DNA from: a virus
Virus record (IMG/VR): IMGVR_UViG_3300030329_003470
Span: 96,001-160,000 of that record
Strand: one strand, 5' to 3'
Length of the DNA: 64,000 nucleotides
The notes below the pieces were generated by a model, which had not been told where the DNA came from, did no database searches, and was given only the letters and a program-made list of their open reading frames with translations. The position numbers and the translations under genes were made by a program. Of this stretch, positions 1-64,000 are shown in pieces (position 1 is the first letter of the stretch; each line of letters opens with the position of its first letter).

Positions 1-2
1 GT

Positions 3-3000
3 GAAGGAGATAAATCTTATCGTCCTGGAACACAAATAGAAACACGTTGGTGGGATTCATTAATAGGAAAAAACTCTACAGGCGATACTGTACCAGATTT
101 AGATCTACCAGTAAACGAAAGGTATGGAAACAACATACGTCCAAGACAAACGTGGTATGTAGATAGATATGCCGCACTTAAAGAAATTATAGATTATGCA
201 AATTCTATATTAAAGAAAAATCAATTAGTTGGAACATTTAGTTTAGATAATTTAGATTCTAATGATCCTGAACCAACAGCGGAAAGTTTAGAATGGGACG
301 CATCTGTAGATACATATGCAGACTTAACTTATATTAATACACAAGACTTGTCAGGCACAGTAAAATATCTTGTAAAAGCAGACGAAAATGCTAATAATTA
401 TTGGGCAATATACACGTGGGACGGATCCGTTTGGTCAAGAACAAAAATTCAAACTTTTAATACTTCTAATTACTGGAGTTACACAGATTGGTATGATATA
501 AGTGGTGATTCAGGACACATACATAGTGAAAATACAAAAATTGATAAGCAGGTTACGTATGAATATGAATTAGATCAATTATTAGATTTAGAGAACGGAA
601 AACACGTTAAAGTTACATCTGCAGACACAGGTGGATGGAAATTGTTTATGAGAACAGTATCAGGTGACGAAGACTGGGAAAATGTTGGAACAGAAAACGG
701 AACTATAAAATTATCAACTAAACTTTATGATTATTCTCAAGACGCAACAGGATACGCAGGTGCAGATAATTTTGATGATAACTTCTTTGATCAAGAACCA
801 TCACAAGAAACAAGACATATTTTAACTGCTTTAAGAGATGATTTATTCATAAACGATTTAGCATTAGAATATAATACTTTATTTTTTACAGGTTTAAGAA
901 AAGTTTTAGAAGAACAAACATATGTTGATTGGATGTTTAAAACTTCATTTATAAATGTTACAAACTCTGTTAGACAACTAGATCAGAGAAAAACTTATAC
1001 AACTGGTACAGACGCATGGATAGAAAGTTATATTAATGAAGTTAAACCGTTCCATTCAAAATTAAGAGAGTACAAATTAGGATATCAAAGTACAGATACA
1101 CAAGATGGAATGAATACAGATTTTGATAGTCCACCTTTCTATGATGCTACTGATGGTAAAATTAGAAATCTAAATGTAACAAAAGATTCTGATAAACTTA
1201 CAGAATATCCTTGGCAGATGTGGAATGACTATCATAAAAAATATGTTTCATCTATTACATTATTAGCAGGAGGTTCAGGATATACAGAAGCACCAACAGT
1301 AACAATATTAGGTGGAACTGTTAATAGCACAGGACCGTTCCAAATACAAGGAACAAGTGCATCAGGAACAACTTCTGGAAGTTATGGATATTATTATCCA
1401 TTGTTTACAAGTGAGTCTCAAGCAAATGTATGGGACACACAAAACAATGGCGGTTCAGGTGCTTCAACAAAATACACATTTGATGAGTATGCAGGAGATT
1501 TTTATATGCCTAACGGTACTTCAAACACTGCACAAACTACACAATCTGGTGCTTATAAAATGTATACAACACCAAATACAGATGCGGCAACAGCCACGGC
1601 AACTGTTAGGAATGGTGAAGTTACAAAAGTTACACTAGTAACCAAAGGAAGAAATTACACAGCAACTCCAACAGTGGTTTTCACAGGCGGAACAGCATCA
1701 GGTACAAATCCAACTACGGTAGCAAAAGCATATGCAAACTTAAACAACGACCTTGTTAGAGATCTTGATGTTACAATGAAGTTTGATAGAATTAAATCTA
1801 CGCATGATGTTGTAGATTGGGCGGCATCTACTGCTTATGTGTATGGACAGTTAATTAGACACAATAACGAACTATACAAAACAACAAAAGCATATACATC
1901 AACTACTAAATTTAAAGAAGGTCTTAATAATCTTTATAAAGTTTATGGAGACGAAACAGGTTTAACAGCGTCAGACAGATTAAAAGGTTTCTATACACCA
2001 GGTACAGGAATGCCAGGCAATGAGTTAAATCAATTAATGCAAGGTGTTGATTATGGTGGAACAATGGTTACAGGATTGTTGTTCTCACAAGGACAAGGAT
2101 GGGATAAATCAGGATGGTATGATTTTCCTTGGGATAATTATGGTGCTTCAAATGTTGTATCATTTACAGCAGACGGTTCAACTAGCACTTATACTTTTGA
2201 CACAGCACCAGCAACAGGAAAAGTTTATCAAGTTTATGTTTCTGCAGATGACAGTACAAGATTAAAACTAGATGATATTATTAATGGTGATGGGTCAACA
2301 ACAGCATTTACTTTAACAACAACACCAGATGAAGGTGCTCTTGTAGAATTTATTCCATTTGATGACGATGGTGTATTAACACCAACTGATGACAGAACAA
2401 TAGATTCAATTATTAAAGGCGGTATGTTTGGTTCTGCTTTAGGTGTATCAGAAAGTGATATTTTATTAGAAGGTGATGAATTTGTAAGTCCAGATACAAG
2501 TTATGCACCAGAAGAAGCAATACCAGGACAGATATTTGACACATTAGATATTAAAGTTTATACATCTCCAGAATCAGGAGTTCCATTTATAACTGAAAAA
2601 AATCATAGAGTTGACGGATCTACACAAACATTTAGCATAGGTGACTATCCAGGAACTATTGCTTCAGTAACAGTTTCCATTGATGGAAAAATGAAAAAAA
2701 TTACAACAGATTACACAGTTGATATTACTAATAAAACAATTACTTTTAATACTGCACCAGCATTGTTCAGCATAGTGTCTACAAAAGTTTTTGCAATATC
2801 TGGAGAAAATTACAGAGTATTAGACCAGTATACTGGTGATGGTAGCACAGTTACATTTACTACAGGTACTAGTGACGATTTCCAATTAGATTCAACAGCA
2901 TCTGAAATTTATATTACAATAGACGGTGTGCCTACTACTTCTTTTTCAACTGCTAGTATTCAACAAAGATTACAAGTAACGTTTGATTCAGCACCAGCGG

Positions 3001-5273
3001 CAGACTCGTATATACAAATTGCAGGATTTAATAAATCAGCAACATCAACAAGAAGTTACGCAAGTATTAGAAATCAAGCAGTAACTTATGATGGTTCAAC
3101 AAACAGATATACTCTAACTTATCCACCAGGAGCAATTGGTCCATTCTCAGGATTAACAATAATTGAAGTTAATGGAAAAGTTTTAAGAGGACCAGACAAT
3201 ACTTACTACACAGGAGATGGCAGTACATATACATATGGAGTAACATCAGGAATGAACGATGACTCAACAGTTGATCCTGCAAAAACAGTTACAGCCGCTT
3301 CACAAGTTGAAGTTTATGTCAACGGAACGAAAAAAGATTTAAACACACACTACACAGTTGACGTAACAAATCAAAATGTTGAATTTAAAACAGATTCAGT
3401 TCCAACAGCAACAGATGTAATTTGTATTTCAACTTTAGTTGATAATCAATATTACAATGAAGGAACTGATATTATTTTAGATAAAGCACAGATTGATGCA
3501 GACTCAAGTACTTTAGGATACGCATTAGAGCAAAGTGATGTTATGTCAGTAACAACATTTAACAATGCATTTGGATCAAAAATTCGTAGAGAAGTTTTAG
3601 AAGGAAGAACTGAAAATGTCTTCAAATTAAGATTTGATGCTTTGAGTGGTGCTTACACTTATGTTTGGTTAAACGGAGATCAATTATTAGAAGGAACAGA
3701 TTTTACAATTAGTGGAAATACAATTACTGTAATTGGAAAAACAATAGTACAAGCAGATAGATTAGATGTAATGTATTTTGCTATAGACAGTGCTGTGAAT
3801 GCCACAGGATTTAGAATATTCAAAGATATGTTAAACAGAACTTTTTACAAACGTATTTCAAAAACTGCAACAACAACAATCAAAAATACTTTGGTTGCAG
3901 GTACCTCAGAAATTGAAGTTGTAGATGCAACTGTTTTAAGTACACCTAATGCGGCAAATAATATGCCAGGTGTAATTTTTATAGACAAAGAAAGAATAGA
4001 ATACTTTACATTATCAGGTAACACGTTAGGACAATTAAGACGTGGTACTTTAGGTACAGGAATTAAGGAGCATAGCGGTGGCACAGAAGTGGTAGATGCC
4101 AGCGGAACTCAAACTATCCCTTACGCAGATACAGTATACACCAACACTTTTACAAGTGATGGAAGTACGGCTGTATATGCTCTATCACAAGCACCGTCCT
4201 CAGCAAGTGAGTTAGACATATTCATTGGTGGCCAACGATTGTTGCTTACTAGCGAGGACGGTTCTACTATTAACTATTCTATCAACAACGATCAAATTAT
4301 TTCAACAGCAACTTTTGTAGACAGTTTTGATGTAAGTTCTCAAGATGGCGATGTAAGAGATGTGAAGTTTAATGCAGATGGAACTAAAATGTTTATGTTG
4401 GGTAGAGCCGATACCTCTGACGTTTATGAATATACATTAACAACAGCATTTGATGTTTCAACAGCATCATTCGTTGATGGTATAGATGTTGGTGTTGGCA
4501 CTTTAGGTGCATCTGGTTCACAAGGAGATAATTCAGCAAATAGTATAGAATTCAATACAGACGGAACTAAATTGTTTGTGTTAGGTCAAGGTAATGATCT
4601 TGTTAATGAATATGCATTGAGTACAGGATTTGATGTTTCAACGGCATCTTTTACGCAAAGTTTTGATATAAGTGCTCAAGAAAGTCTACCTTATGGTTTG
4701 GCATTTAATAATGACGGAACTAAAATGTTTATTTGTGGATGGTCAGGTGACGATATTAATGAATATGTATTAACAACAGGTTTTGATATTTCAACAGCAT
4801 CTTATTCTCAAAATTACAGTGTAGCGGCTCAAAACGCAAAACCATCAGCAGTACAATTTAATACTGACGGAACTAAAATGTATGTTTTGAGAGGAACTGG
4901 TGCTCCAGAAATACAAGAATATAGATTAACAACAGGATTTGATGTGTCAACAGCATCTTTTGTAAATAGTGATGCTGTGTTTGATGTTTCAAGCGAAGAA
5001 ACTAAACCAAGAGGTTTCTGTTTTAACAGTGATGGAACCAAATTATTTGTTTGCGGATATACTGGAGACGATATTAACGAATATACTTTAACTTCAACAG
5101 TTACTTTAACTACTCCTCCAGCGTCAGGAACACAGGTTAAAGTATTACATAAGAAAGGACAGGTGTGGTATACAGCAAAAGATGGTAATCCGTCAAACGG
5201 ATTAGGATTGCAGGCTTCTACTACTGCTCAGGCTAAATTCATAGCAGGCGAACCAACAAATGCACCTGAATAA
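3..5273 (+). CDS. Giant virion structural protein (baseplate wedge/hub-like), 5'-truncated by the window
   Basis: The frame is open from nt 3 (EGDKSYRPG...RWWD...), so the TTG at 348 is not the real start. It has repeated ~80-aa beta-sandwich modules (F/YTxDGSTxxF/Y...VxIDG), GGSGY...PTV motifs and an inserted propeller-like repeat. It lies just upstream of the fibre genes. Confidence 0.7.
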   Translation, partial: EGDKSYRPGTQIETRWWDSLIGKNSTGDTVPDLDLPVNERYGNNIRPRQTWYVDRYAALKEIIDYANSILKKNQLVGTFSLDNLDSNDPEPTAESLEWDASVDTYADLTYINTQDLSGTVKYLVKADENANNYWAIYTWDGSVWSRTKIQTFNTSNYWSYTDWYDISGDSGHIHSENTKIDKQVTYEYELDQLLDLENGKHVKVTSADTGGWKLFMRTVSGDEDWENVGTENGTIKLSTKLYDYSQDATGYAGADNFDDNFFDQEPSQETRHILTALRDDLFINDLALEYNTLFFTGLRKVLEEQTYVDWMFKTSFINVTNSVRQLDQRKTYTTGTDAWIESYINEVKPFHSKLREYKLGYQSTDTQDGMNTDFDSPPFYDATDGKIRNLNVTKDSDKLTEYPWQMWNDYHKKYVSSITLLAGGSGYTEAPTVTILGGTVNSTGPFQIQGTSASGTTSGSYGYYYPLFTSESQANVWDTQNNGGSGASTKYTFDEYAGDFYMPNGTSNTAQTTQSGAYKMYTTPNTDAATATATVRNGEVTKVTLVTKGRNYTATPTVVFTGGTASGTNPTTVAKAYANLNNDLVRDLDVTMKFDRIKSTHDVVDWAASTAYVYGQLIRHNNELYKTTKAYTSTTKFKEGLNNLYKVYGDETGLTASDRLKGFYTPGTGMPGNELNQLMQGVDYGGTMVTGLLFSQGQGWDKSGWYDFPWDNYGASNVVSFTADGSTSTYTFDTAPATGKVYQVYVSADDSTRLKLDDIINGDGSTTAFTLTTTPDEGALVEFIPFDDDGVLTPTDDRTIDSIIKGGMFGSALGVSESDILLEGDEFVSPDTSYAPEEAIPGQIFDTLDIKVYTSPESGVPFITEKNHRVDGSTQTFSIGDYPGTIASVTVSIDGKMKKITTDYTVDITNKTITFNTAPALFSIVSTKVFAISGENYRVLDQYTGDGSTVTFTTGTSDDFQLDSTASEIYITIDGVPTTSFSTASIQQRLQVTFDSAPAADSYIQIAGFNKSATSTRSYASIRNQAVTYDGSTNRYTLTYPPGAIGPFSGLTIIEVNGKVLRGPDNTYYTGDGSTYTYGVTSGMNDDSTVDPAKTVTAASQVEVYVNGTKKDLNTHYTVDVTNQNVEFKTDSVPTATDVICISTLVDNQYYNEGTDIILDKAQIDADSSTLGYALEQSDVMSVTTFNNAFGSKIRREVLEGRTENVFKLRFDALSGAYTYVWLNGDQLLEGTDFTISGNTITVIGKTIVQADRLDVMYFAIDSAVNATGFRIFKDMLNRTFYKRISKTATTTIKNTLVAGTSEIEVVDATVLSTPNAANNMPGVIFIDKERIEYFTLSGNTLGQLRRGTLGTGIKEHSGGTEVVDASGTQTIPYADTVYTNTFTSDGSTAVYALSQAPSSASELDIFIGGQRLLLTSEDGSTINYSINNDQIISTATFVDSFDVSSQDGDVRDVKFNADGTKMFMLGRADTSDVYEYTLTTAFDVSTASFVDGIDVGVGTLGASGSQGDNSANSIEFNTDGTKLFVLGQGNDLVNEYALSTGFDVSTASFTQSFDISAQESLPYGLAFNNDGTKMFICGWSGDDINEYVLTTGFDISTASYSQNYSVAAQNAKPSAVQFNTDGTKMYVLRGTGAPEIQEYRLTTGFDVSTASFVNSDAVFDVSSEETKPRGFCFNSDGTKLFVCGYTGDDINEYTLTSTVTLTTPPASGTQVKVLHKKGQVWYTAKDGNPSNGLGLQASTTAQAKFIAGEPTNAPE
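4290..5100 (+). repeat. Five tandem ~50-aa beta-propeller-like blades (FNxDGTK[ML]F...EYxL[ST]TGFD[VI]STAS)
   Basis: The repeats are visible in the protein and in the DNA (gacggaactaaa/gatggaactaaa, tttgatgtttcaac). Confidence 0.85.
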
Positions 5274-12235: not shown

Positions 12236-13885
12236 ATGGCGTACAAAATTAACAACACCTTCGGGACACAAATAGTCTCATTAGCAGATGGTACATTAGA
12301 TACCACTACTACTGATCTTGCACTTTTTGGAAAAGGGTATGCAGGATTTGGTGAAAAACTAAATGAAAATTTAATAAAACTTCTAGAAAATTTTAATAAT
12401 ACATCAGCACCATCAAACAAAATTACAGGTCAACTATGGTATGACCAAACAAATAAACAAATCAACGTTTACGACGGAACAAAATTTAAACCAGTTGGAT
12501 CATCTACAAATTCAACAACGTCACCGTCAAATGCAGTACTAGGTGATACATGGTTTGATACCACTAATACACAATTATATGTTTACAACGGATCAGCATG
12601 GACACTGATTGGACCAACAACAGTTGCAGGATCAGGTGTTACATCAGCAACCTCAGAAACAGTTCAAGATAATGCAGGCGTTAACAGAGATATTTTAAAA
12701 CTTGTTGCCAACGATGCAGTTGTTGGGGTTGTATCTAATATTGCTTTTACACCAAGTTCAACAGAAACAGCAGGTGCGGCATTAGTTGCGGCTGGTTATT
12801 CCACTGTTGCACAAGGTATACAATTATCATCTACAGTATCATCAGCAAAATTTAGAGGAACGTCAACAGATTCAGATGCATTAGGTGGAGTTGCCGCGGC
12901 AAACTATCTAAGATCAAATGCGGCAGATACAACATCAGGCACATTAGGAATACTAGCAGATGGTACAACATTAACTTTAGGTGCAGGTTCAGATATTACT
13001 TTTACAATGGCAAGTGATAACTTAACTGTTGCACAAACAACACAAGATAAAGATATAATTTTCACTGTAAATGATGGCGGCTCAACTGTAACATTAATGA
13101 CACTTGATGGAGACACAGGAAGATTAGAACTTCCATCATGTGGTGATGTAAGAATTAAAGGAAATTTAACAGTAGATGGTGATCAAGTTGTTAATAACAC
13201 ATCAACTTTAACAGTTGAAGACAATATTATTGAATTAAACAGAAATATTTCCTCAAATTCAGGAATGCCAAACTATTCAGGAATTAAAGTAAACAGAGGT
13301 GAAACATCTGTTGCTACTGAACAAGACTTATACTGGGTTTGGGACGAAACATTCGCAGATGATGGTACAACAATATACGGAAATGCAGGCGGAGCCTGGA
13401 CAGCATTTAAATCAGGTGGCGGTGATGACGAATTATCAGCACCAACGTTGGTTGATTTAAGAGCAAACGTGGTTCATGCAACATCAACATCGGCTCAATA
13501 TGCTGACTTGGCAGAAAGATATGCCTCAGATATGGCAGTAGAAGTGGGTGATGTTGTAATGTTAGGTGGCTCAGAAGAAATAACTAAATGTGATAAAGAT
13601 GCTTGTGATAAAGTGTTTGGGGTAGTAAGTGAATCACCAGCATTTTTAATGAATGCTCAAGCAGGTAACAATGACTCACATCCAATGATAGCATTAAAAG
13701 GACGTGTTATGGTTAAAATTAAGGGTACAGGACAAGCAGGAGATCGTGTGGTATCAGCAGGATCTGGAGAGGCTAGAATAGCCAGCATAGAAGAATGTAC
13801 GGCTTTTAATGTATTGGGCAGACTAATTAAAGATAAATATAATGAAGAAACCGCACTTACTGAGTGTGTAATAGGAGTTAAATAG
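12236..13885 (+). CDS. Tail/baseplate fibre paralogue 3 with C-terminal YADLAE domain
   Basis: MAYKINNT...GKGYAGFGE...LENF...GQLWYD. It shares DSDALGGV.AANYLRSNA.DTTSGTLG with 6012. Confidence 0.7.
   Translation: MAYKINNTFGTQIVSLADGTLDTTTTDLALFGKGYAGFGEKLNENLIKLLENFNNTSAPSNKITGQLWYDQTNKQINVYDGTKFKPVGSSTNSTTSPSNAVLGDTWFDTTNTQLYVYNGSAWTLIGPTTVAGSGVTSATSETVQDNAGVNRDILKLVANDAVVGVVSNIAFTPSSTETAGAALVAAGYSTVAQGIQLSSTVSSAKFRGTSTDSDALGGVAAANYLRSNAADTTSGTLGILADGTTLTLGAGSDITFTMASDNLTVAQTTQDKDIIFTVNDGGSTVTLMTLDGDTGRLELPSCGDVRIKGNLTVDGDQVVNNTSTLTVEDNIIELNRNISSNSGMPNYSGIKVNRGETSVATEQDLYWVWDETFADDGTTIYGNAGGAWTAFKSGGGDDELSAPTLVDLRANVVHATSTSAQYADLAERYASDMAVEVGDVVMLGGSEEITKCDKDACDKVFGVVSESPAFLMNAQAGNNDSHPMIALKGRVMVKIKGTGQAGDRVVSAGSGEARIASIEECTAFNVLGRLIKDKYNEETALTECVIGVK
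13485..13512 (+). repeat. 28-bp perfect direct repeat, copy 2
   Basis: Identical to 7132-7159. Confidence 0.9.
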
Positions 13886-13889: not shown

Positions 13890-14870
13890 ATGGGATATGT
13901 AGCAGGGGAAACAATTTTAGACGACGAATACAACACATTCGTTAACAGTTCATCAGATCCATTTGGATATAATCACTTTGCAGGAACAGGCGCAACAGTT
14001 TACGGTCTTGGGCAAACGCACATAGACACTGTAGGCGCAGGAGCAACAGTTGAAGCATCTAATTGGAATACTTTAATGACAGGTATTACTAATATTGCAA
14101 ACCACTGTAATTCATCTATTACTTCAAGAACACAGGTAACAGCAGGTGATACAATATCAATTAAAGCGGCAATGGCAACAGACTTGGCTACATTGGCAAC
14201 AGCGATTGCTGGTGGTAGTACAAGTGCAACAGCATTAGACACATCTTCGGCAAAAAGACAATCAAGTTCATCAAGTGCTTGGTCACAATCACACATAGTA
14301 GAACACTCAGTTACATTTACGAATGCTAACACAATGAGATGGTTCTTTAACGGTGGTGGAAAAATTAGAGTATTAGGTGACAGAACAGGTAACGGTAACA
14401 CAGGCGGAGATGCCAATACAAAAGACACAAACTGGACAACATTATTAGCGGCAGTAGGAAACTTTGATATTGGGGCAACTGTTTCAACAAGATCTGGATC
14501 AGGCGAAACTTTAACTACAGATGGTTTATCAAATGGTTTCCATGATTTAGGAACTGGTTATACTGTTCTTATTAAATTAACAGAAGCAACTTCACCGTAC
14601 ACAGGAAACTATGTTCAAGTAGAAGCAAAATTAGATGCGGCGGCATCAGGTGGAGCGGCAACAAAAATTACTATCAAGTATTCCTTAATTGACGGTGCGG
14701 CAGATAACACATACACATCTGGTAACCTATCAAGTGTTGACCAAACTGTAGACAGAGTTGGTGTAACAAGAGTTCAATTATTCGTTATTAGTCCAAACGA
14801 CGAGCAAGGACTTGCGTCAGACATCACTGAATCAGCAACTGCTGAAGAATCTAACGCAACTACAACATAA
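13890..14870 (+). CDS. Virion structural protein (fibre/baseplate-associated)
   Basis: 326-aa Thr/Ser/Ala/Gly-rich ORF with RWFFNGGG, directly after fibre 3. Confidence 0.5.
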   Translation: MGYVAGETILDDEYNTFVNSSSDPFGYNHFAGTGATVYGLGQTHIDTVGAGATVEASNWNTLMTGITNIANHCNSSITSRTQVTAGDTISIKAAMATDLATLATAIAGGSTSATALDTSSAKRQSSSSSAWSQSHIVEHSVTFTNANTMRWFFNGGGKIRVLGDRTGNGNTGGDANTKDTNWTTLLAAVGNFDIGATVSTRSGSGETLTTDGLSNGFHDLGTGYTVLIKLTEATSPYTGNYVQVEAKLDAAASGGAATKITIKYSLIDGAADNTYTSGNLSSVDQTVDRVGVTRVQLFVISPNDEQGLASDITESATAEESNATTT

Positions 14871-36734: not shown

Positions 36735-37022
36735 TTATCTAGTGTATTTGTCGCCGGTCTTTAAAAGGTACACTGCAAACTTGTCTGTTTGGTGTTGAGT
36801 GTTTAATTTTTTAGCCAAGTTTTCTGCGTGACCTGGATTAGAAAATGAGACTTTTTTATATTTTGGTCCCGGATAGTTTGCCACCAAACTTGATGATTTC
36901 AAGTTGATTGGTTTGCCATCATAAAAAACCGCCCAGATGCCTTCTGCCGCCAGGACTTCGTCCATCTTGTAGGTTGTTTTATTACTGTGTTGTAGTAACA
37001 CTGTGGGTTTTGGTCTGCTCAT
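36735..37022 (-). CDS. Hypothetical phage protein
   Basis: 95 aa starting MSRPKPTVLL, with an upstream TAAATA box. Confidence 0.75.
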   Translation of the reverse strand: MSRPKPTVLLQHSNKTTYKMDEVLAAEGIWAVFYDGKPINLKSSSLVANYPGPKYKKVSFSNPGHAENLAKKLNTQHQTDKFAVYLLKTGDKYTR

Positions 37023-37056
37023 AGTTTATAACTATATTTACCAAAAATTGTAATGC

Positions 37057-37878
37057 TTATGTATTGCTAGTGATTATTTTAATAATTTTTGCACCAGTTA
37101 AATCGTAGTCATGGTTGCCATAGGCGAGCAACGGCGCACTGAATTCGTTAACTTCGTTCCACTTTTCTATGTTGTTTTTTTGAAGCCATTTTGTTTTGTA
37201 TAAAGAAAACCAATCAATAAATTCTTGAGGGAAACTTTTTGGTTTATTGCTTTTTAACGCAATAAAAAATTGTGCTCTAAATGTAAAATGTGCTTTACAC
37301 AATTCCATAACTCTTTCTTCGTTGTTAGGTTCTCCATCACTCCAATAATCAAATGGTTTCTTGCCTAGTTCGGTCCATGGCAAATACATATTATTTTTTA
37401 CGATTTCATTTTCGTAATAAGGGTTACAATCAAACTGTTCGGTTAACGGTCCTTCTTTAGTACCCCATCCAATTATTACTTTGTTTTTTATATTTTTATT
37501 ATTTTCTGCATTATGAATGGCATGATGAAACTCATATAAATCTTCTTTGTCTTTTCCGGTTAGTTTATCGTGCCATTCTTCGTAGATTTTATGAAGTATG
37601 TTTAAGTTTTTTTGTTCATTGATATCAACAAAGTTAGTAGGTGTAATTTTATACTTTTCACAGAAGTTATTATAAATTTTTGACAGATCAGAAACATCTG
37701 TAAAACGACTTTCTACAGGATCAACATTAATATTCTTTAAATGTTTAATTTTTTCGAACCACTTTTTAGCAATAATAGAATCTGCCAGTGTGTATTCGCA
37801 ATCTATTTCGTTTTCGTCTTGAGAAAAAATTATATGAAACTTATTTTTTGTCACCAAATTTACCGCCGTCCATTTCAA
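37057..37878 (-). CDS. Hypothetical protein
   Basis: 273-aa ORF; start uncertain. Confidence 0.65.
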   Translation of the reverse strand: MKWTAVNLVTKNKFHIIFSQDENEIDCEYTLADSIIAKKWFEKIKHLKNINVDPVESRFTDVSDLSKIYNNFCEKYKITPTNFVDINEQKNLNILHKIYEEWHDKLTGKDKEDLYEFHHAIHNAENNKNIKNKVIIGWGTKEGPLTEQFDCNPYYENEIVKNNMYLPWTELGKKPFDYWSDGEPNNEERVMELCKAHFTFRAQFFIALKSNKPKSFPQEFIDWFSLYKTKWLQKNNIEKWNEVNEFSAPLLAYGNHDYDLTGAKIIKIITSNT

Positions 37879-39695: not shown

Positions 39696-40048
39696 TATGA
39701 TATCTCCGTTTTGCCATCTGGTGTTCTATTAATTTGAACATATCCAGAACCAGTTACATCTATACCTTGTTCGTTTCCTATAGTTCTACATAGAGTTTGA
39801 AACCATCTATCAACTATTTCTTCATCAGACTGACCTTGATAACCATGTTGTGTTAACATATTAACAAATTCATCATTCCAATCTAATTCAAAAAAACCAT
39901 TACGAGGATTGTCTGGATTAACATTCATGTTTAAAACTTTAACCCAAGGTTCTTCACTTTTTTTGGTTTTCTTTTTTGCTCTAGTTTTTGTAGTTTTCTT
40001 TACTTTCATTGTTTTATTATACTTGGTTTTCTTTGTTTTGCCAACCAT
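39695..40048 (-). CDS. Hypothetical phage protein with Lys-rich N-terminus
   Basis: TAATG coupling to queE sets the start at 40048; contains EPWVKVL...GFFELDWN. Confidence 0.75.
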   Translation of the reverse strand: MVGKTKKTKYNKTMKVKKTTKTRAKKKTKKSEEPWVKVLNMNVNPDNPRNGFFELDWNDEFVNMLTQHGYQGQSDEEIVDRWFQTLCRTIGNEQGIDVTGSGYVQINRTPDGKTEIS

Positions 40049-40935
40049 TATGTCCCCCATTTATTACCAAATAAGTCCACGTGTAATCTTGGCGAATACT
40101 TATAACCATGTTGCATTGCCAAGTCAGCAACTTGTTTTGATGTTTTTGCTTGTCCTTCTACTGTTGCACCCACCGCCATTAGGTAAATGTCTGCTTCAAC
40201 ACCTGCTTTTTTATATTCTTCTCTTGCCATTTCTACTTCTTCAATATCTTGTTCGTCTTGCACAACAAATTTAAAATATAAATGACTGTTTGGTATGTTT
40301 GAATATTGGTAAGCAACGTCTGGTTTAATTGCTTTTGCCCAATGTTCTCCTGATATTGATAATTTTGGTGATGAAGACCAAGTTACGTGTACTGGAGTTT
40401 TAGTATAATCACCTGCTACTAATCCTTGTAAAAATCTTTGAAAGTCTGCTTTGAATAATTGTGTTAAATTAGTTTCAATAGTTAAATTTTTTAAATCTGT
40501 AAATTCTGGTTGTCTTAATAATTGTTGTGTTTCTCTTTGCCACAACATTGGTTCACCACCTGTTATAATAAAATGTATGTCTGAACCGTTATCGTTAGTC
40601 CATTTATTGTTTGGTGTGTATGTTTTTACTTTTTCTGCAATTTCTTCTATGCTATCCCAAGAAACTAAATGTTTGTATCTGTTTGCCCAACTGGCACTTG
40701 CATCACAACCTATTTCTACTACTGGTAAATCTCTCACGTGTTTGATGCCTGATAAATCTTGTGTGTTATATGGCATCTCTTCTGGTTTGAGCCATTTACT
40801 TTTATCTCTGCCTTGTCCAAACCCGTGACAGTTAAAGTTACAACCAAACACTCTAAAGAATACACTAGGTACACCTACAAAACGTCCTTCGCCTTGTACA
40901 CTGTAAAATATTTCTGAGTATCTTAGTTTTTCCAT
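40048..40935 (-). CDS. queE: 7-carboxy-7-deazaguanine synthase (QueE-type radical SAM)
   Basis: EIFYSVQGEG..VGVPSVFFRVFGCNFNC, ITGGEP, SPK and YSPRLHV motifs. Confidence 0.9.
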   Translation of the reverse strand: MEKLRYSEIFYSVQGEGRFVGVPSVFFRVFGCNFNCHGFGQGRDKSKWLKPEEMPYNTQDLSGIKHVRDLPVVEIGCDASASWANRYKHLVSWDSIEEIAEKVKTYTPNNKWTNDNGSDIHFIITGGEPMLWQRETQQLLRQPEFTDLKNLTIETNLTQLFKADFQRFLQGLVAGDYTKTPVHVTWSSSPKLSISGEHWAKAIKPDVAYQYSNIPNSHLYFKFVVQDEQDIEEVEMAREEYKKAGVEADIYLMAVGATVEGQAKTSKQVADLAMQHGYKYSPRLHVDLFGNKWGT

Positions 40936-41536: not shown

Positions 41537-42187
41537 CTATTTGATATTTTTGTATTTTGCTTGTAGTCTATTGAGTAAAATACCATATGCTGGTAAGAAC
41601 ACAATTAATCCAACTACAATTTTAGTCAGTGTATTATTCTGTGCAACAACGTGCCAGTTTGCACCAATCCATGATAGGTTGCCTTCAGCATCTAATGATC
41701 CTGCAAATGCAACGTAAAAGAATGAATAGGTATCAATTATGTTTGCCGCAATAGTTGAGATTGCCGGTGCCGCCCACCATGCCTTTGACTTCTCTCTGAT
41801 TGCTTGGAAAACGTACACGTCAAGCATAGTACCAATTGCATAAGCAGTACCACTTGCAAATCCTACTCTGTATGCGTGTGGGTCACCTAATGCTAACAGT
41901 ACAAGTACTGATGCTACGATTGCCGGAATGATTGCCATTGCAACAACGGCTCTTCCTGCTTCTTTTCCGACCATTCTAACTGTTAAGTCAGTTGCTACTA
42001 CAACAATCGGAAATGTAAACGCCGCCGCCGCTAGTGGGAATGATCCAAATAATGGAAGTTCTGCACCGGGAAATAAATCGAATCTGATTGTTACTAGATA
42101 ATTTGATAAAGCAATTACTGCCGTATGTAAAATAACTAGATTTCTAACAAGTGTTCTATCGACACCTGCCATTATTGATTTTAACAT
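41537..42187 (-). CDS. yhhQ: Queuosine-precursor (preQ0/preQ1) transporter, YhhQ/VUT family
   Basis: Multi-TM protein with ALSNYLV, FTFPIVVVATDLT, GFASGTAY, DVYVFQ and IDTYSF motifs. Confidence 0.82.
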   Translation of the reverse strand: MLKSIMAGVDRTLVRNLVILHTAVIALSNYLVTIRFDLFPGAELPLFGSFPLAAAAFTFPIVVVATDLTVRMVGKEAGRAVVAMAIIPAIVASVLVLLALGDPHAYRVGFASGTAYAIGTMLDVYVFQAIREKSKAWWAAPAISTIAANIIDTYSFFYVAFAGSLDAEGNLSWIGANWHVVAQNNTLTKIVVGLIVFLPAYGILLNRLQAKYKNIK

Positions 42188-45252: not shown

Positions 45253-45547
45253 TTTCTTCCTTCTCTCTTGTTTCACACATTTGTTTTATATTTTGATAAT
45301 GTTCGTAAGCATCTTGTAATGCTGGATATTTTTTTCTTAATTGTGATTCAAACATATCTTCTGTTTGTACATCTAAATCTCCTAAGTCACCATAAGAATA
45401 AGTTACACCACCCATATCTGGATCTAAACTGTCCACAGTACCAGCCATTTGTATTCCATCACTGCTAGGAATCCAATTATCAGGAGAAGGTTCGTATGTT
45501 ACGTTAACACCGTCTGATGTAAGTTTTTCTTTTTTCTTTTTACTCAT
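45242..45547 (-). CDS. Hypothetical protein
   Basis: 101-aa ORF ending KYPALQDAYEHY. Confidence 0.65.
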   Translation of the reverse strand: MSKKKKEKLTSDGVNVTYEPSPDNWIPSSDGIQMAGTVDSLDPDMGGVTYSYGDLGDLDVQTEDMFESQLRKKYPALQDAYEHYQNIKQMCETREKEENEN

Positions 45548-46250
45548 GGCCTTTCATACTCATACAAATTTTATAAAATTCATCTCTAGTTGCTGGATCA
45601 TCTTTAAATGCACCAAGCATAATTGCAGTTGTCATATCAGATTCGTGTTCTCTTACGCCTCTGTGTGTCATGCAATGGTGTTCTGCTTTAACTACTACTG
45701 CAATATGTTTTGTGTGTGCATATTCTTGTAATGCTTCTGCAATTTGTGTTGTCATTTCTTCTTGTATTTGTGGTCTTTCTACAATGTGATGTATAATTCT
45801 GTTAAACTTACTCAAACCAATTACTTGTCCGTTTGGAATAATACCTACCCATGCGTTACCTACAATGTTTTGTAAATGGTGAGCACACGTAGATTTAATA
45901 CTAATTGGACCACTAGTGTACATACTCTTGTAACCCATATTAGGAAAACTTGTAACTCTTGGCATTGGATTATATCTGCCACCAAATGTTTCTTGTATAT
46001 ACATTTTAGCGACACGTTTTGCAGTTTCTTGTGTGTTGTGATCGTTTTCTGTATCAATTACAAGACTTTCTAGTACCCCTTGTAATTTTTCTTGCACTTC
46101 TACTTGTAATTTTTCTAATTCGCCTTCTTCTATGTATTCTGCAATATTATCGTTTGCATGGAATCGTTTACCTGCTTTTTGAATTCTTTCTTTTATTTGT
46201 TTACTAATTGGTCCTGTTGGTTGCCAACTATCTTTTAACATATCTTCCAT
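45540..46250 (-). CDS. folE: GTP cyclohydrolase I
   Basis: TAKRVAKMY, STCAHHL, GLSKFNR, RPQIQE and HHCMTHRGV motifs. Confidence 0.95.
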   Translation of the reverse strand: MEDMLKDSWQPTGPISKQIKERIQKAGKRFHANDNIAEYIEEGELEKLQVEVQEKLQGVLESLVIDTENDHNTQETAKRVAKMYIQETFGGRYNPMPRVTSFPNMGYKSMYTSGPISIKSTCAHHLQNIVGNAWVGIIPNGQVIGLSKFNRIIHHIVERPQIQEEMTTQIAEALQEYAHTKHIAVVVKAEHHCMTHRGVREHESDMTTAIMLGAFKDDPATRDEFYKICMSMKGHE

Positions 46251-53770: not shown

Positions 53771-55216
53771 CTATTCAAATAATGAACTAAAGTTATTTTT
53801 ACCTTTACCACCACCAGTTGCTCTTTGCCATCTAGTTCCTCTTATATCTGCAAGATAACTTGAAGCATTAGATATTACTTCCATTGGTTTTTCTGAGGTG
53901 AATACTTCTTCTGCAAGTGTATTAAAGTATAAAATATTTCTAGGAACATATTCACTAAATTCATCAGTGTTATCAGAACCTTTTGTTTTTCTCCAATGTC
54001 CAACTTGTGGTTGATATTTCAAACGTTCTATATCGTTTAAATCGTTTGCTGTTTGTACTGCTCTAATTTGATTGTATACGTTGTGTGCCATCATTAAACA
54101 ATAACTAAAACTATCCCAACTTGTTTTGCCTTCTTTGTTATTCTTATTTAGGTCGCCTTCACCATACCAACACACGTCTCCCATTTTTAATCTATTACCA
54201 ATTTGACTTGGAAACGGAAATTGTATATTAGAACCTTTTAATTTCTTATCATCTGGTGCTTTGTCCATAATAAATGAAAATCTTTGTGGTGTGAATACGT
54301 TTTGTGTATAAACTAAACCATTTGCAGTTGATAAAAATGCTGATGCACTATCAAAACTTACTGTAAAGTTTGGATTAATATGTTTTCTTACTTGTCTTTG
54401 TACCTGTGTTAAGTAGCAGGCCCAATCTAATTGTGATGTTCCTAGTATGTGCATCCAATCTTTGCCATCTAATTTCTTTTCATCTCTCATTATGATTAGT
54501 CTTTTAAGTAGTACTTCCATATCACACATATTAATACCACCCATTCCCCAACCTTCAAATTCAAAGTCTTTTACTTGATCATACCATATTTGTGCAGTTT
54601 CCCAATCATCACCTTGTAATACATTTAAAAACTTTGTTTGCCCTAATCTATTTTTTTGAAAGAAATTATTATTGTATATTGTTCCATCTAAACAATCTTG
54701 AAAACTATTCAATCCTGTTTTAGGACTATTCAAATCATCTGCCGCCCAACTTGGAACGTCTAATGTCATTGCCCAGTCACTTGTTAATTCTAACCAATTT
54801 AAAATATTGCTTCTTACTGCGTTTGCTTTATTACCCTCAAAATCTTTCCAATCAAATTTAATAACACCTTTGCCTAATTGATATCCTCCAGAATCTCCTA
54901 CTATTGTGCTAAACTTTCTATCTCTATCAACACACATAGAATCTCTGTCTGCAACTTTATCCATATCTAAACAGGCGTGTCCTGCTGAATATAATGCAGT
55001 TGGATATGTAAAGTAACCTTCGTCTGGATTAATAAAGTTTAAACCTTCAACTCCTCTATCTAAACCTTTTGGAATTCTTTCTGCTGGAATATGAGTACCT
55101 TTAGTAACTCTTTGTTTGGAAATAAATGTATTAAAGAAATTAGAAATAGCAGGCAAGAACACTGCAAAATCTCTGCTTAATTCTCCTAAATGTTCTCGCC
55201 CTTTAATTTCTGTCAT
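53771..55216 (-). CDS. dpdA: Guanine transglycosylase, TGT fold (DpdA-like, presumed DNA-modifying)
   Basis: DSGGYQ, MTLDVP, LNVLQG, GWGMGG, HILG and FDS motifs, with folE, queE, a T-fold gene and yhhQ nearby. No CxCxxC Zn motif. Confidence 0.78.
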   Translation of the reverse strand: MTEIKGREHLGELSRDFAVFLPAISNFFNTFISKQRVTKGTHIPAERIPKGLDRGVEGLNFINPDEGYFTYPTALYSAGHACLDMDKVADRDSMCVDRDRKFSTIVGDSGGYQLGKGVIKFDWKDFEGNKANAVRSNILNWLELTSDWAMTLDVPSWAADDLNSPKTGLNSFQDCLDGTIYNNNFFQKNRLGQTKFLNVLQGDDWETAQIWYDQVKDFEFEGWGMGGINMCDMEVLLKRLIIMRDEKKLDGKDWMHILGTSQLDWACYLTQVQRQVRKHINPNFTVSFDSASAFLSTANGLVYTQNVFTPQRFSFIMDKAPDDKKLKGSNIQFPFPSQIGNRLKMGDVCWYGEGDLNKNNKEGKTSWDSFSYCLMMAHNVYNQIRAVQTANDLNDIERLKYQPQVGHWRKTKGSDNTDEFSEYVPRNILYFNTLAEEVFTSEKPMEVISNASSYLADIRGTRWQRATGGGKGKNNFSSLFE

Positions 55217-59453: not shown

Positions 59454-59728
59454 AAAAATACTCTAAAATTTCCTATTATATTCATTATAGTAAACCATGA
59501 TGCCAAAACGCAAGTCCAAATTATCCTTCTACGCCATGATGCATATGCAAGTGTACTTGAACCTAAAAGATACAATGGAAAAATCCAACGCATATCTGGT
59601 CCCGGGGAAGTAAAAGTTAATAGATAAGATCCTGCTACTGTTACTACTACTGAAAATACTTCAAGATAAAAAGCAAGTCTGTCTGTTTTGTAACTTGTTA
59701 CCCAAAATTCTTTGAGTATTCGATACAT
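59450..59728 (-). CDS. Small three-helix membrane protein
   Basis: 92 aa with three hydrophobic segments; coupled to genes on both sides. Confidence 0.7.
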   Translation of the reverse strand: MYRILKEFWVTSYKTDRLAFYLEVFSVVVTVAGSYLLTFTSPGPDMRWIFPLYLLGSSTLAYASWRRRIIWTCVLASWFTIMNIIGNFRVFL

Positions 59729-59985
59729 TAAAGTTTACCAGCGGAGTTTAGTATACTTTCTAATGTGTCCATTTCATCGGCAATGTTTTGGTAGTTGCCT
59801 CTGTGTGCTACGGATATTGCTTTGTTGATTAGTGCAGGTTTTAATTCTAATTCTTCTGCGATTGCTTTCACAGTATCTTTTAGTCCTGCTCTTAAATCCT
59901 CAACTTCACTTAATACTTGTGAACCTTGTGAAATTATTTGGATTAATTTTTGTTTTTCTGCTTCGTTAAAGTTTCTTACTGCCAT
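59728..59985 (-). CDS. Small dsDNA-binding protein (T4 DsbA/GapR-like)
   Basis: EVEDLRAGLKDTVKAIAEELELKPALINKAI helical pattern; next to the polymerase. Confidence 0.6.
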   Translation of the reverse strand: MAVRNFNEAEKQKLIQIISQGSQVLSEVEDLRAGLKDTVKAIAEELELKPALINKAISVAHRGNYQNIADEMDTLESILNSAGKL

Positions 59986-60008
59986 TTGTTTCTCCTGTTG
60001 TTACATAC

Positions 60009-60037
60009 AGTATATAACATCTTTAGTGATAGAGCAA
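60009..60037 (-). promoter_or_regulatory. Sigma70-like promoter TTGCTC-17-TATACT for the replication operon
   Basis: Intergenic with 17-nt spacing, followed by an AGGAGA SD. Confidence 0.55.
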
Positions 60038-60046
60038 ATGGTTTTT

Positions 60047-60283
60047 TTAGATCAACCCTGCTAATTTTTGGATACGTTTTATTTCAACGTCGTCTGACTC
60101 TTCAACTTGATTTGCCTTCATTATTTGGTTAGGACCATCGGCAAATGCTTCTATTTTTGCAAGTCCTCTACTACCAGCACTGCTAGGCGATTTAATTTGT
60201 TCACCTGCGGTAATATGTCCTCTTTGACGCATTTTGGTAACGTCATCTAAGTATTGGTGGTAGTTGTAAGGAATACTGCTCAT
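60047..60283 (-). CDS. Hypothetical late protein with C-terminal RIxKLAGL motif
   Basis: 78 aa; AATAAATA box 6 nt before the ATG. Confidence 0.7.
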   Translation of the reverse strand: MSSIPYNYHQYLDDVTKMRQRGHITAGEQIKSPSSAGSRGLAKIEAFADGPNQIMKANQVEESDDVEIKRIQKLAGLI

Positions 60284-60292
60284 ATGCAGTAT

Positions 60293-61144
60293 TTATTTTT
60301 TTTCTGCTGGGTCTAAATCGTTTGTAAACTTATCTTCTGCAGGTTCTACTGGTAGTTCTATTTCTTCGCCGCCTTCGTCAAACTCTTTGTCTAACATAGG
60401 CACTTCGCCTGTTTTATCATCTTCTTCGTCTTCTTCGTCGTCTTTTGATTCTGCATCTTGTTTTACTAGATCATTCAATGACGGTTCAGGCCTGTCTTTT
60501 TCTTGTACTACTTCTTCAGGTGCTTCTGCCTTTTCTGCGTCTGCAATTATTTCTGTAGTTTCTGGAGTTTTAACAAGAATGCTTTTTTGTTCTTCATTGT
60601 AAACTGCTTCATTGTCTGAGAAAGTGTTGTATAATTCAACAAGTTGAGACTCTTCTGCGTTTTTAATATATTCTGCGATATCTTTTGCAATAACTTCTCT
60701 AAATGATTTTGAGTCATAAGTTTGTTCTTCTTTTTGTTCTGCTTTTAATTCTGCTAATTGTGTTTCTAGTTCAGCAATTTTATCTAATCTTTTGCTTTCT
60801 TCGTTTACTGCTTTTTTAATATTAGTTGCTATTGAATCATCTGCATCTGATTCTTTAATTGCTTTTGTAATGTCTGATTCTTTTTTAGGTTCTTCTTCTT
60901 TTGTGATAGACTCAACTAATTTTTCTGCTTTTTCTGAAACTTTTGGTGCTTCTGTGTATTCTTTAATACCTGCTAATCTGGCAATGTCTGCTAATGAAAT
61001 ATCTTTGTCATCAAGGATTTTTGGCTCTTGTTTAGCGGCTTCCATTAGTGATGCTCTTTCTTCTTCAGGAGTTATATTACTCATTGCGTTCAAACGAGCA
61101 ACTAGATCCGCGAAACTATTGTCTGTTGATTTATTACGTGCCAT
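60293..61144 (-). CDS. Highly acidic protein (scaffold/head-internal-like)
   Basis: Glu/Asp-rich coiled coil with DIARLAGI; TATAAATA box 5 nt before the ATG. Confidence 0.6.
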   Translation of the reverse strand: MARNKSTDNSFADLVARLNAMSNITPEEERASLMEAAKQEPKILDDKDISLADIARLAGIKEYTEAPKVSEKAEKLVESITKEEEPKKESDITKAIKESDADDSIATNIKKAVNEESKRLDKIAELETQLAELKAEQKEEQTYDSKSFREVIAKDIAEYIKNAEESQLVELYNTFSDNEAVYNEEQKSILVKTPETTEIIADAEKAEAPEEVVQEKDRPEPSLNDLVKQDAESKDDEEDEEDDKTGEVPMLDKEFDEGGEEIELPVEPAEDKFTNDLDPAEKK

Positions 61145-61149
61145 ATGAG

Positions 61150-61157
61150 TATTTATA
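61150..61157 (-). promoter_or_regulatory. T4-like late promoter TATAAATA
   Basis: Exact consensus, 5 nt before the ATG at 61144. Confidence 0.7.
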
Positions 61158-61169
61158 ATTGTTACAAAT

Positions 61170-62834
61170 TTATTTAAGGCGTTGATTTAGTAGTATAGCA
61201 AGTTTTGACTCGTATGCCAAGCCTTCAGTTGGCATAAACTTACTATATTTGTCCTGTAGATACTTGACTTGGTTTAGATCCTTACCAATATCTAGTCGTA
61301 GTTTAGCATCTTTTAAATCTTTTTCAATCATTTTAGCAAGTTCATCGTTACCTGCATCTTGTGCCATTTCTAATGCAGTATTCATTGCCTGGATTGCTGG
61401 AACCTGATTATTAATTGCATCTTGTATTGATCCAACACCTGCCAATCCTGCCACAAATACTCCTGCCATGGCCAAACTTTTTGCCCAGTCTTTCAAACCT
61501 TCTTCTAGTTCTGCTTCATTTTTGGGTTTACCATGCTTGTTGTGTTGTGCCCAAGCAATGGCATATGGTGCTGATTTATCTTTGAACTTTTTTTTTAATG
61601 CTTTTACTTGATCTTCTCTGCCTGGAGGTGCTTTTTCGTCTACTTCTTTTCTATTTTCTTTTGCCAGTTCTTTTTCAACTTCATTTACTCTTTTAGATAA
61701 TATTCTCATCATGCCAGGTTTTGTATCAATGTCATCTAATTTTGTTTCTTTGGCTAGTATTTCGTCAATGTGTTTTTGCACTATGCCTGCGTGTTTCTGT
61801 ATGACGCCTGAGTCCAGTTCTTCCCTGTAGGGATTCAATTTTTGGTATTCTTCGTAGTTGTATGCACCTTGTAAATAATCTGCCGCTTTGTTTAATTTGC
61901 TTTGCACCCAACCTTCTAGGTCATCACCTGGTTTAATCATAGATGCTAATTCAATTGCATACTTGGCAGTGTGATACAATGTGCTTTTGCTCATGTGTCC
62001 CTCGCCTGCGTCTTCCGAAACTGATTCATCCATATTTTGTAGGTATTCAGAAGCCATTTCTAACTTACCATCGTCATTAAAATCTGAACCCATAACTTTA
62101 TCCAAGTCGCTCTTCATAGCAGTTGTTATTGGAAGATGTTCTTTGTTGTTAATTTTGTCATAAAAGTCATCGTCTGCCTGTTCGGCATCGTACATAGTGT
62201 CATATCCGTATTTTTTAAGTGCCGCTTCTAATTCTTTTTCTTCGATACCGTCTGTTCCAACACCAGTGCTTAATCTGTACTTCATATATCCTAGCACTAA
62301 TGGGTCCATGTTGTTTCCAAAGTAACCATCATATTTTTTGTGTATCATTTGCAAGCCTTTTTTCTGTTCATCTGTCAGAGAGCCTGCGTCTTCGTCAAAC
62401 TTGCCAATCTCTTCTTGGTCTCTGCCTGTCTGGTCTAGGAATTTCAAATCCTTTGCCGTTACATCGTTTTCACCTTTATCTTCACCGTATGAGATTGTGT
62501 AGATGCCTTCGTCGTCATCTGTGTAGTCCACAATCCTCACGATCCTACCTGATTTTATTTCTCTTGCATAGTCACCAATCTGTTCTCTTGATTCTGTCAA
62601 GCCACCGTCATCATATAGGCCTGAATCTTGACCTTGCATATAGCCGTGTACTTTTTTAACATAGTCACCTGCTAGATCAATTTTCTTTTGAACCCATGCT
62701 TCCATTTCTGCACGGTCATCAATTAGTTTGTGCAGTTTGATTGCGTGTTTGCCAATTTTCATTATTTGGTTCAACGCCATACTTGCTTCGTATGTGTCGG
62801 GTTTTACTGGCTCATGAAACTCTTTAATTTTCAT
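61170..62834 (-). CDS. Mosaic acidic protein, putative head-internal polyprotein
   Basis: Starts MKIKEF and has two copies of an ExWVQxKxxxAxDY module, EDAG junctions and one hydrophobic helix. Confidence 0.6.
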   Translation of the reverse strand: MKIKEFHEPVKPDTYEASMALNQIMKIGKHAIKLHKLIDDRAEMEAWVQKKIDLAGDYVKKVHGYMQGQDSGLYDDGGLTESREQIGDYAREIKSGRIVRIVDYTDDDEGIYTISYGEDKGENDVTAKDLKFLDQTGRDQEEIGKFDEDAGSLTDEQKKGLQMIHKKYDGYFGNNMDPLVLGYMKYRLSTGVGTDGIEEKELEAALKKYGYDTMYDAEQADDDFYDKINNKEHLPITTAMKSDLDKVMGSDFNDDGKLEMASEYLQNMDESVSEDAGEGHMSKSTLYHTAKYAIELASMIKPGDDLEGWVQSKLNKAADYLQGAYNYEEYQKLNPYREELDSGVIQKHAGIVQKHIDEILAKETKLDDIDTKPGMMRILSKRVNEVEKELAKENRKEVDEKAPPGREDQVKALKKKFKDKSAPYAIAWAQHNKHGKPKNEAELEEGLKDWAKSLAMAGVFVAGLAGVGSIQDAINNQVPAIQAMNTALEMAQDAGNDELAKMIEKDLKDAKLRLDIGKDLNQVKYLQDKYSKFMPTEGLAYESKLAILLNQRLK

Positions 62835-62835
62835 A

Positions 62836-64000
62836 TTAATTAAAACCAAAATGTGTTACTTCTGGATACTTTGCTATAATTTTTCTTGCTAGTTCGTTAT
62901 GATGTTTTACTTGTCTATTATCCCAACCCTCAGGTTTACCGCCACCTATCATAGTTGCTCCTCCTCCAGATCTATCAACTGTTGTTGGAATTTCTTGTGA
63001 TGGTTTATCAATATTTTTTTGCAACCATTGTGTAGTTCTTGCTATGAATTCTTTTGCTGGTACAGGTGGTTGATTGTCCTCAAAGTCTGGATTATAACCC
63101 AGTGTGTCAAGGAACTGTCTCATACTTGCGTTGCTCATGTATGGTGTGTCTAGTGGTTCATCGTTTTGCCATCCGTCTGGGAAAGTCCAAGTCATTTGTT
63201 TTTCGTCTTTTGGATCTTTGTAATAAGGTAACATTGATGCACCTTCTCCAAGTCCTGCTAATTTTGTAATTCTGTTTAGTTCTTGGTTTTCGTTTGCTCT
63301 TTTTAATGTATCAGCAACTTCTGGATGTTTTGATAATCCTATTGCAATCGCTTCAATATTTTTTACAGCACTTGTCATATCGTTTGCATATGTTTTTGCA
63401 TATGCTTTTGCTTTTGCTATTTGACCAAAAGTAAATTTTTCGCCTGCGTCTTCTCTAAATTTGTCATCTAACCATTCATCAAAATCTTCTGAATTCATGA
63501 AGTCTTGCCAAGTTTTAAATCTTGATTGTATTTCTTTACTTGATGCCCACATACCTCGAGCCGCATCTGCTCTTTCGGCATCTGCACTTGGTTCTGATTC
63601 TTGTGCAACAGGTTGGCCTTTCATTCTTGCATTTTTAATACCTGCTTTTTCTATTTCTTCTGGTTGTTTTATAACAACAAATCTACCACTTGTATCTTGG
63701 TCATCAAATTCATATCCAACAGCAGTCATTAAATCTCTAATTGCAAAGTTGTGATCTGATGATCCAAAACCTTCGTCTTCTGGCCAGTCACTATATTTTT
63801 CTTCAACTTCAGCGGCCGCTTCTTTCCATTTGTGTTTTAATAAATCCCATTCTTGAACAGTAATAAACTTTCTCATAATTGCCATTCTTAAAAGTTCCAT
63901 GCCTGAGCCAAATGGTGCGTCTTCTTTAATAAATGCTTCTTTAAGTAAACCTAAGTCTATAAGTCTATCTGCAATCCATTCATCTGGCATTCCTGTTCTT
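62836..64000 (-). CDS. Mosaic acidic protein, putative head-internal; probably 5'-truncated
   Basis: The frame is open to the window edge; contains ELNRITKLAGL and REDAGE. Confidence 0.6.
   Translation of the reverse strand, partial: RTGMPDEWIADRLIDLGLLKEAFIKEDAPFGSGMELLRMAIMRKFITVQEWDLLKHKWKEAAAEVEEKYSDWPEDEGFGSSDHNFAIRDLMTAVGYEFDDQDTSGRFVVIKQPEEIEKAGIKNARMKGQPVAQESEPSADAERADAARGMWASSKEIQSRFKTWQDFMNSEDFDEWLDDKFREDAGEKFTFGQIAKAKAYAKTYANDMTSAVKNIEAIAIGLSKHPEVADTLKRANENQELNRITKLAGLGEGASMLPYYKDPKDEKQMTWTFPDGWQNDEPLDTPYMSNASMRQFLDTLGYNPDFEDNQPPVPAKEFIARTTQWLQKNIDKPSQEIPTTVDRSGGGATMIGGGKPEGWDNRQVKHHNELARKIIAKYPEVTHFGFN

Follow-up and report, generated by a model that had tools for sequence, protein, structure and literature searches.

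Complete avoidance of GCWGC and other type II restriction words in an uncultured marine T4-like jumbo phage that carries a candidate DpdA-like gene

Restriction-site avoidance is itself well known in phages, and roughly one phage genome in ten was found to lack a site completely (Rusinov et al. 2018, PMC6286503). In phage CAjan, guanines in GA and GGC contexts are modified by DpdA, but cutting goes on at sites that offer G in no other context than GC, GT or GGT (PMC7544227), and the DpdA of Pseudomonas phage iggy has a strict GA motif (PMC10484667). Here we describe a stretch of 64,000 nucleotides (the window) that corresponds to bases 96001-160000 of the linear, 196,581-bp IMG/VR virus record IMGVR_UViG_3300030329_003470, in which the word GCWGC does not occur and which carries the gene of a 481-aa protein that we read as a divergent DpdA-like enzyme. 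Like the avoidance seen in non-temperate double-stranded DNA phages (PMC6286503), the pattern consists of short type II words that are gone, of synonymous recoding and of differences between related phages. Unlike the phages of that survey, about 200 kb hold not one copy of at least four words, GCWGC is near zero across a whole abundant clade, and the copies left of two other words obey a strict rule on the flanking base. As in CAjan (PMC7544227), an enzyme of the tRNA-guanine transglycosylase (TGT) fold has FolE and a YhhQ-family transporter nearby, the contexts that appear protective match the two CAjan motifs, and sites that hold G in GC or GT contexts only would likewise be exposed. Unlike the CAjan and iggy enzymes, the protein is longer and diverges too far to be caught by the Pfam TGT model, and the fragment yielded no QueC or QueD; and CAjan is a siphophage, whereas this is a T4-like marine jumbo phage in which we infer modification from sequence statistics only. 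The word GCWGC is a real target in aquatic microbes: the N4-methylcytosine methylase M.AbaBS3I of freshwater Chloroflexi methylates it (PMC6329791, where TseI was used as GCWGC-specific enzyme), and its methylation was also reported for a metagenome-assembled genome (MAG) of marine Chloroflexi (PMC8919816), but nothing ties those organisms to this phage. What is new here is how extreme the avoidance is over the whole clade, together with a DpdA-like gene that had stayed hidden and a flanking-G rule that links avoidance to a predicted modification specificity. A full-text search gave a single paper on both restriction-site avoidance and deazaguanine, which it mentions only in passing.

The record contains genes for T4-type capsid, portal, sheath and terminase proteins and for a family B DNA polymerase. 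No cultured phage matched it in a nucleotide search, and the nearest cultured relatives of the polymerase have less than 50% identity, so there is no cultured reference. A viral metagenome collection gave 417 polymerase matches, which means hundreds of close relatives, and a large protein collection held more than 6,300 relatives of the DpdA-like protein, some on contigs up to 324 kb. The distance to cultured phages together with the many metagenomic relatives showed that the record is part of the genome of a marine T4-superfamily jumbo phage that is abundant and uncultured. Its CheckV completeness is about 55%, which means that about 45% of the genome lies outside it, and this limits every negative gene search given below. 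The features of the window are collected in Table 1.

Table 1 Features of the window (positions in the 64,000-nucleotide stretch)
Feature	Position	Strand	Evidence or remark
Window without GCWGC, AGCT, RCATGY and GGGCT/AGCCC; GCSGC enriched	1..64000	.	Shuffle and Markov counts; whole record alike
Surviving GCGC sites, all GGCGC/GCGCC	13990..13993; others at 14035, 33415, 36115, 37134, 55221	.	Site listing
Divergent protein of the TGT superfamily (DpdA-like), 481 aa, clade core gene	53771..55216	-	Motif, AlphaFold2, Foldseek
GTP cyclohydrolase I (FolE), first step to 7-deazaguanines	45540..46250	-	Pfam E 3e-48; NCBIfam FolE slightly below curated cut-offs
Transporter of the YhhQ/Vut_1 family (queuosine-precursor uptake family)	41537..42187	-	Pfam PF02592, E 3.7e-21
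Radical-SAM protein with weak QueE-like N-terminus	40048..40935	-	NCBIfam QueE E 3e-10, residues 3-37 only, far below curated cut-off
Example Ala run LAAAAF	42021..42031	-	GCG GCG GCG GCG on coding strand
Example Ala run VAAAN	12893..12901	+	GCC GCG GCA

Silent removal of GCWGC and other short words

No GCWGC was found in the window, where 45.7 ± 6.4 sites were expected from dinucleotide shuffles and 48.4 from a maximal-order Markov model. The whole record was also free of the word, against 161 sites expected from the Markov model and 203 ± 7 from synonymous-codon shuffles, in which every protein and the codon usage of each gene were preserved. The initial annotation, made from the letters of the window, had proposed complete avoidance, and this was borne out under all three null models; its rough expectation of 20-25 sites was too low. 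It had also claimed that Ala-Ala is always written with GCG or GCC first, and this holds without exception. Among the 64 Ala-Ala pairs of the window the first codon was GCG in 46 and GCC in 18, among the 238 pairs of the record GCG in 185 and GCC in 53, and GCA or GCT was used in none, although the share of these two codons is 84% over all Ala codons and 88-92% before a non-Ala codon. The five Ala runs that had been cited as examples (LAAAAF, QAAAY, DAAAS, KAAAE and VAAAN) read exactly as described. In the other frames, Ser following an NGC codon was never written AGC in the record, and where Gln stands between G and C, so that CAG would complete the word, CAA was used in 35/35 cases. GCWGC is thus cleared through synonymous codon choice in all three frames, mainly in that GCG replaces GCA, and GCC replaces GCT, in Ala-Ala pairs. 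GCSGC is enriched in the record (250 vs 65 expected from synonymous shuffles) as a by-product of this removal. The ratio of GCG to GCC in Ala-Ala pairs was 3.5 to 1 though GCC is commoner elsewhere; it is the same as the ratio of GCA to GCT, and we have no explanation for it.

All 4- to 6-mers were then ranked over the record, a check that the initial annotation had proposed together with a count over the whole genome. GCWGC stood far below expectation, and GCSGC was not depleted. A count far under expectation, synonymous removal and a word that is a known type II site are among the marks of restriction-site avoidance, and GCWGC shows all three. The ranking also indicated that GCWGC is not the lone anomaly it had been taken for, because at least four words are fully purged (GCWGC, AGCT, RCATGY and GGGCT). 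AGCT was at 0 against 327 (Markov) or 428 (synonymous shuffles) expected, and like GCWGC it has been cleared synonymously in all three frames: before a codon that begins with T, Ser was AGC in 0/819 cases; before CTN, Lys, Glu and Gln were NAA in 371/371; and after an NNA codon, Ala was GCT in 0/1344. All four words of RCATGY were at 0 in the record, with about 100 expected, and so was GGGCT/AGCCC (34-48 expected). Three further words were depleted without being lost: GCGC, with 6 sites against 32 expected in the window and 17 against about 97 in the record; GCAAGC/GCTTGC (GCWWGC), with 3 against about 26 in the record; and GGATCC, which was four-fold depleted. The control word GATC was not depleted (621 vs 579 expected). 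It had been noted that GCSGC, GCGC and GATC all occur, which stands for GCSGC and GATC but not for the strongly depleted GCGC. We take AGCT, RCATGY and GCGC to be the targets of AluI-, NspI- and HhaI-equivalent enzymes, respectively. Partial depletion of CTTAAG, CTWAG, GCTNAGC-like words, ACGCT/AGCGT, CCGA/TCGG and GGATG/CATCC suggests additional restriction pressures.

Distribution of the avoidance over the phage clade

To describe the clade, about 220 contigs independently assembled from many metagenomes were sampled around three different genes. With tolerant lineages excluded, they contained 6 GCWGC against 2073 expected in 2.36 Mb, over a GC range of 31-49%. Two small nested sub-lineages (L015/L016 with L132-L135, and L206-L208) tolerate the word, with 210 sites against 269 expected. 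At homologous sites, GCAGC of the tolerant lineages corresponds to GCGGC in the present record in 15 cases and GCTGC to GCCGC in 8, which means that the replacements are mostly silent central transitions from W to S. Such single-base transitions are what an artefact or mutational decay might also leave, if a modified motif had been misread in sequencing or misassembled, or if methylated cytosines had been deaminated. But the change is central W to S and not C to T, which rules out deamination decay; other frames were cleared by other synonymous routes (AGT for AGC, CAA for CAG); the same result came from hundreds of independent metagenome assemblies; and the nested tolerant lineages have normal counts in the same kinds of data. 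Artefact or decay is therefore extremely improbable, and the purge of GCWGC is the work of natural selection.

In the tree of the DNA polymerase, GCWGC avoidance spans both main branches. The avoidance of AGCT, RCATGY and GGGCT occurs in patches, where one lineage can be at zero and its sister at expectation, and GCGC avoidance likewise differs between lineages of the clade. For AGCT, 176 loci were informative, with zero sites in 43, partial depletion in 97 and normal counts in 36, and loss of GGGCT tends to go with loss of AGCT across lineages. Repeated gain and loss of this kind is what changing restriction repertoires of the hosts would produce, while the constant purge of GCWGC points to a pressure that is common to nearly all hosts of the clade. 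Gene content, compared between tolerant and purged lineages around their shared 20 kb, showed conserved synteny and gave no further clue.

GCWGC avoidance was not seen in two cultured marine phages, for each of which bases 1-50000 were counted: the Pelagibacter phage HTVC008M had 65 sites against 59 expected and the Prochlorococcus phage P-SSM2 had 67 against 63. These phages show depletions of their own, namely GATC (24 vs 137) and GGCC (10 vs 36) in HTVC008M and GCGC (0 vs 12 expected) in P-SSM2, and AGCT is at about half or less of expectation in both.

Flanking G at surviving sites and the DpdA-like gene

The surviving sites of GCGC, GCWWGC and AGCT tend to have a flanking G. All 17 GCGC survivors of the record lie in GGCGC/GCGCC, and the three GCWWGC survivors are all flanked by G in the same way. 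Over the clade, 154/157 distinct GCGC survivors in strongly avoiding loci (98%) were G-flanked; loci without avoidance gave 58% (p = 8e-19). Where AGCT is partly avoided, 226/285 survivors (79%) were GAGCT/AGCTC, compared with 34% in non-avoiding loci (p = 4e-37), and in several lineages every surviving AGCT was G-flanked (for example 11/11, 9/9 and 7/7). A 5' G turns a surviving AGCT into a GA context and a surviving GCGC into a GGC context. The inner guanines of GCWGC are always in WGC, never in GA or GGC, and every GCSGC contains GGC. If GA and GGC are the protected contexts, no copy of GCWGC could be shielded, so that the word would have to be purged whatever its context, and GCSGC would be a safe replacement. 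We also tried to extend the GA/GGC rule to CATG and rejected this, because the class CATGG[A/G/T] with a pyrimidine on the other strand is not purged (94 vs 119); the purge of RCATGY is explained most simply by NspI-type specificity alone.

A candidate enzyme for these contexts, whose gene coexists with the purge, is missed by standard annotation. The 481-aa open reading frame (ORF) had no match in Pfam, PHROG, NCBIfam or PDB sequences (the profile search of PDB sequences was empty). The Pfam TGT model PF01702 gave no hit to the protein of the window and E = 0.0045 with 2/64 homologues. The TGT-negative Pfam result for the record is a false negative. Look-up in a protein atlas led to viral TGT-like clusters. 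When 64 diverse homologues were aligned, a GDSGGYQ block was found in which D108, S109 and G111 are invariant and G110 and Q113 nearly so, and this block corresponds to DSGGFQ in a genuine bacterial Tgt (L108). In TGTs, the Asp of DSGG[F/Y]Q is the catalytic residue of the active site. The AlphaFold2 model of the protein had a pLDDT of 92.6 and a pTM of 0.91, and the best 50 PDB matches in Foldseek were all tRNA-guanine transglycosylases (E about 1e-7, probability 1.0, TM 0.42-0.55). Based on the predicted structure and the motif, we read the protein as a divergent DpdA-like enzyme with a TGT-type barrel fold. FolE and the YhhQ-family transporter lie in the same window, so the deazaguanine premise of the initial annotation holds as far as these genes go, but the pathway is incomplete in the fragment of about 55%.

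The same annotation had offered as an alternative that GCWGC is avoided for a reason linked to the specificity of DpdA. One form of such a reason would be a harmful reaction of the enzyme at that word. The gene and the purge do co-occur in most clade members. However, L206-L208 carry the gene at 80% identity and have normal GCWGC (58 vs 71 and 48 vs 57 expected), AGCT and GCGC, which means that the gene alone is not the cause of the purge, and carriers at 52-57% identity mostly keep normal GCWGC. This alternative is largely refuted, and we consider it very improbable.

Several paralogous N-terminal-twitch radical-SAM proteins (NF033640) are encoded at 17927-51364 of the window, beside a GalE-like epimerase and a glycosyltransferase and near the DpdA-like gene. 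Together with the sugar-nucleotide enzymes, these paralogues might indicate a further-decorated base.

Probable restriction pressure, proposed guanine modification and possible hosts

The explanation that we consider probable is type II restriction pressure from hosts together with a context-limited guanine modification that is unable to cover GCWGC. Strong and long-lasting selection would strip from the phage genome the type II sites that are met in hosts, and GCWGC would be deleted completely, whatever its flanks. Candidates for the responsible enzyme are those of TseI/ApeKI type (GCWGC), BbvI type (GCAGC, type IIS) and Fnu4HI type (GCNGC). The DpdA-like transglycosylase would in addition modify guanines in GA and GGC contexts. 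This modification would shield GAGCT, GGCGC and all GCSGC, and copies of GCWGC would be left bare, so that they would have to be deleted. The more specific version, a two-layer anti-restriction in which G is modified at GA/GGC and only uncovered copies are deleted, and in which the GCWGC enzyme may be a GCNGC cutter with GCSGC shielded, is put forward tentatively, as a possibility that we rate a little short of even. The initial annotation had suggested that deazaguanine modification fails to stop a nuclease of the host that acts at GCWGC; the silent, selective and clade-wide purge, its relaxation in two nested lineages and the DpdA-like gene fit this putative nuclease and putative modification.

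Several points weigh against the combination of restriction pressure and modification. No restriction enzyme cognate to GCWGC was seen. The guanine modification is predicted from word statistics, and QueC, QueD and a clear QueE were not found by Pfam and NCBIfam in the record, about 55% of the genome. GGGCT contains GGC and is fully purged all the same, and GGATCC contains GA and is depleted. There are no GGCWGC survivors, so that insufficient protection by the outer G against that enzyme has to be assumed ad hoc. The purge of RCATGY adds nothing for modification. A near-uniform pressure over a clade of such wide GC range is also unusual for restriction-modification systems, which vary between strains.

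Some of these points, namely the putative nature of the modification, QueC and QueD not found, the NspI-type enzyme that suffices for RCATGY and the breaking of the GA/GGC rule by GGGCT and GGATCC, would also suit plain avoidance of host restriction with no DNA modification, in which the 5' G would reflect a flank preference of the nuclease or an unrelated sequence constraint. But the unrelated words AGCT and GCGC, and GCWWGC in 3/3 cases, obey one and the same 5'-G rule with very strong statistics, and to our knowledge no restriction specificity has the form HGCGCD. In addition, GA and GGC are exactly the contexts of a characterised phage DpdA, and a conserved DpdA-like gene is present. We therefore regard avoidance with no modification as unlikely.

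It was also considered that the pressure comes from the phage side, that is, that a methylase-less endonuclease of the phage or of a partner element attacks the GCWGC sites of hosts or rivals, while the phage spares itself by having none. A purge that is almost uniform across the clade would agree with such self-sparing, and the gene could lie in the 45% of the genome outside the record. In the 197-kb record, however, no type II restriction-endonuclease-like or PvuII-like gene was found with Pfam, PADLOC and a PvuII model, and the number of purged words, at least four with patchy and lineage-specific occurrence, does not suit it either. This makes self-sparing distinctly improbable. No C5, N4/N6 or D12 DNA methylase gene was found by Pfam in the record (about 55% of the genome). 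A PADLOC match to a type IV restriction endonuclease in the record proved to be a helicase domain. The only small nuclease of the PD-(D/E)xK type is a TnsA-like endonuclease of 146 aa (G000, the whole record, 36736-37176(-), the same as L111:6736-7176:-). Its gene belongs to the clade core, with 353 relatives at 79-97% identity, and could have a resolvase-type role; as the cause of the purge it was rejected, because a lineage whose GCWGC counts are normal has an intact copy at 91% identity.

If restriction pressure and context-limited modification do act together, motif-avoidance spectra could reveal both the specificity of DNA modification and the host defence repertoires of uncultured phage-host pairs from sequence alone. 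The flanking-G rule of surviving sites predicts target contexts of the DpdA-like enzyme, and these predictions are testable on environmental viral DNA and with the cloned gene.

For possible hosts, all prokaryote species genomes were scanned with the phage polymerase, and the one match was the chimeric GTDB/NCBI MAG 'Rickettsiales bacterium MED657', which is a weak lead. This MAG (L081 and the G001 contigs, L087-L105) combines many contigs of the phage clade at 35-39% GC with a cellular genome at 28-29% GC. In the phage-clade contigs all four words were at or near zero, whereas the cellular contigs had normal counts, which indicated that the signature belongs to the phage. The cellular, alphaproteobacterial contigs carry two tandem clusters with four C5 methylases (L091:12528-15938 and L092:471-4220, which are the G001 contigs C15 and C25). 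One of these methylases resembles HhaI along its entire length (E 6e-62) and adjoins a type II restriction endonuclease that PADLOC recovers in two pieces, one in each of two neighbouring ORFs, so this gene is possibly disrupted; an unannotated 464-aa ORF lies between the two methylases of the other pair. An HhaI-like system of this kind would fit the GCGC depletion of the phage, although co-binning is weak evidence for a host. Surveys by single-molecule real-time sequencing would miss GCWGC methylases of the 5-methylcytosine type. Methylation of AGCT, another of the purged words, was reported in Thaumarchaeota (PMC6329791, PMC8919816), again with no tie to this phage.

TAAATA/TATTTA was also four-fold scarce inside genes of the record (75 vs 296 in synonymous shuffles). 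The word is similar to the T4 late promoter core TATAAATA, and its scarcity may reflect avoidance of internal promoters.

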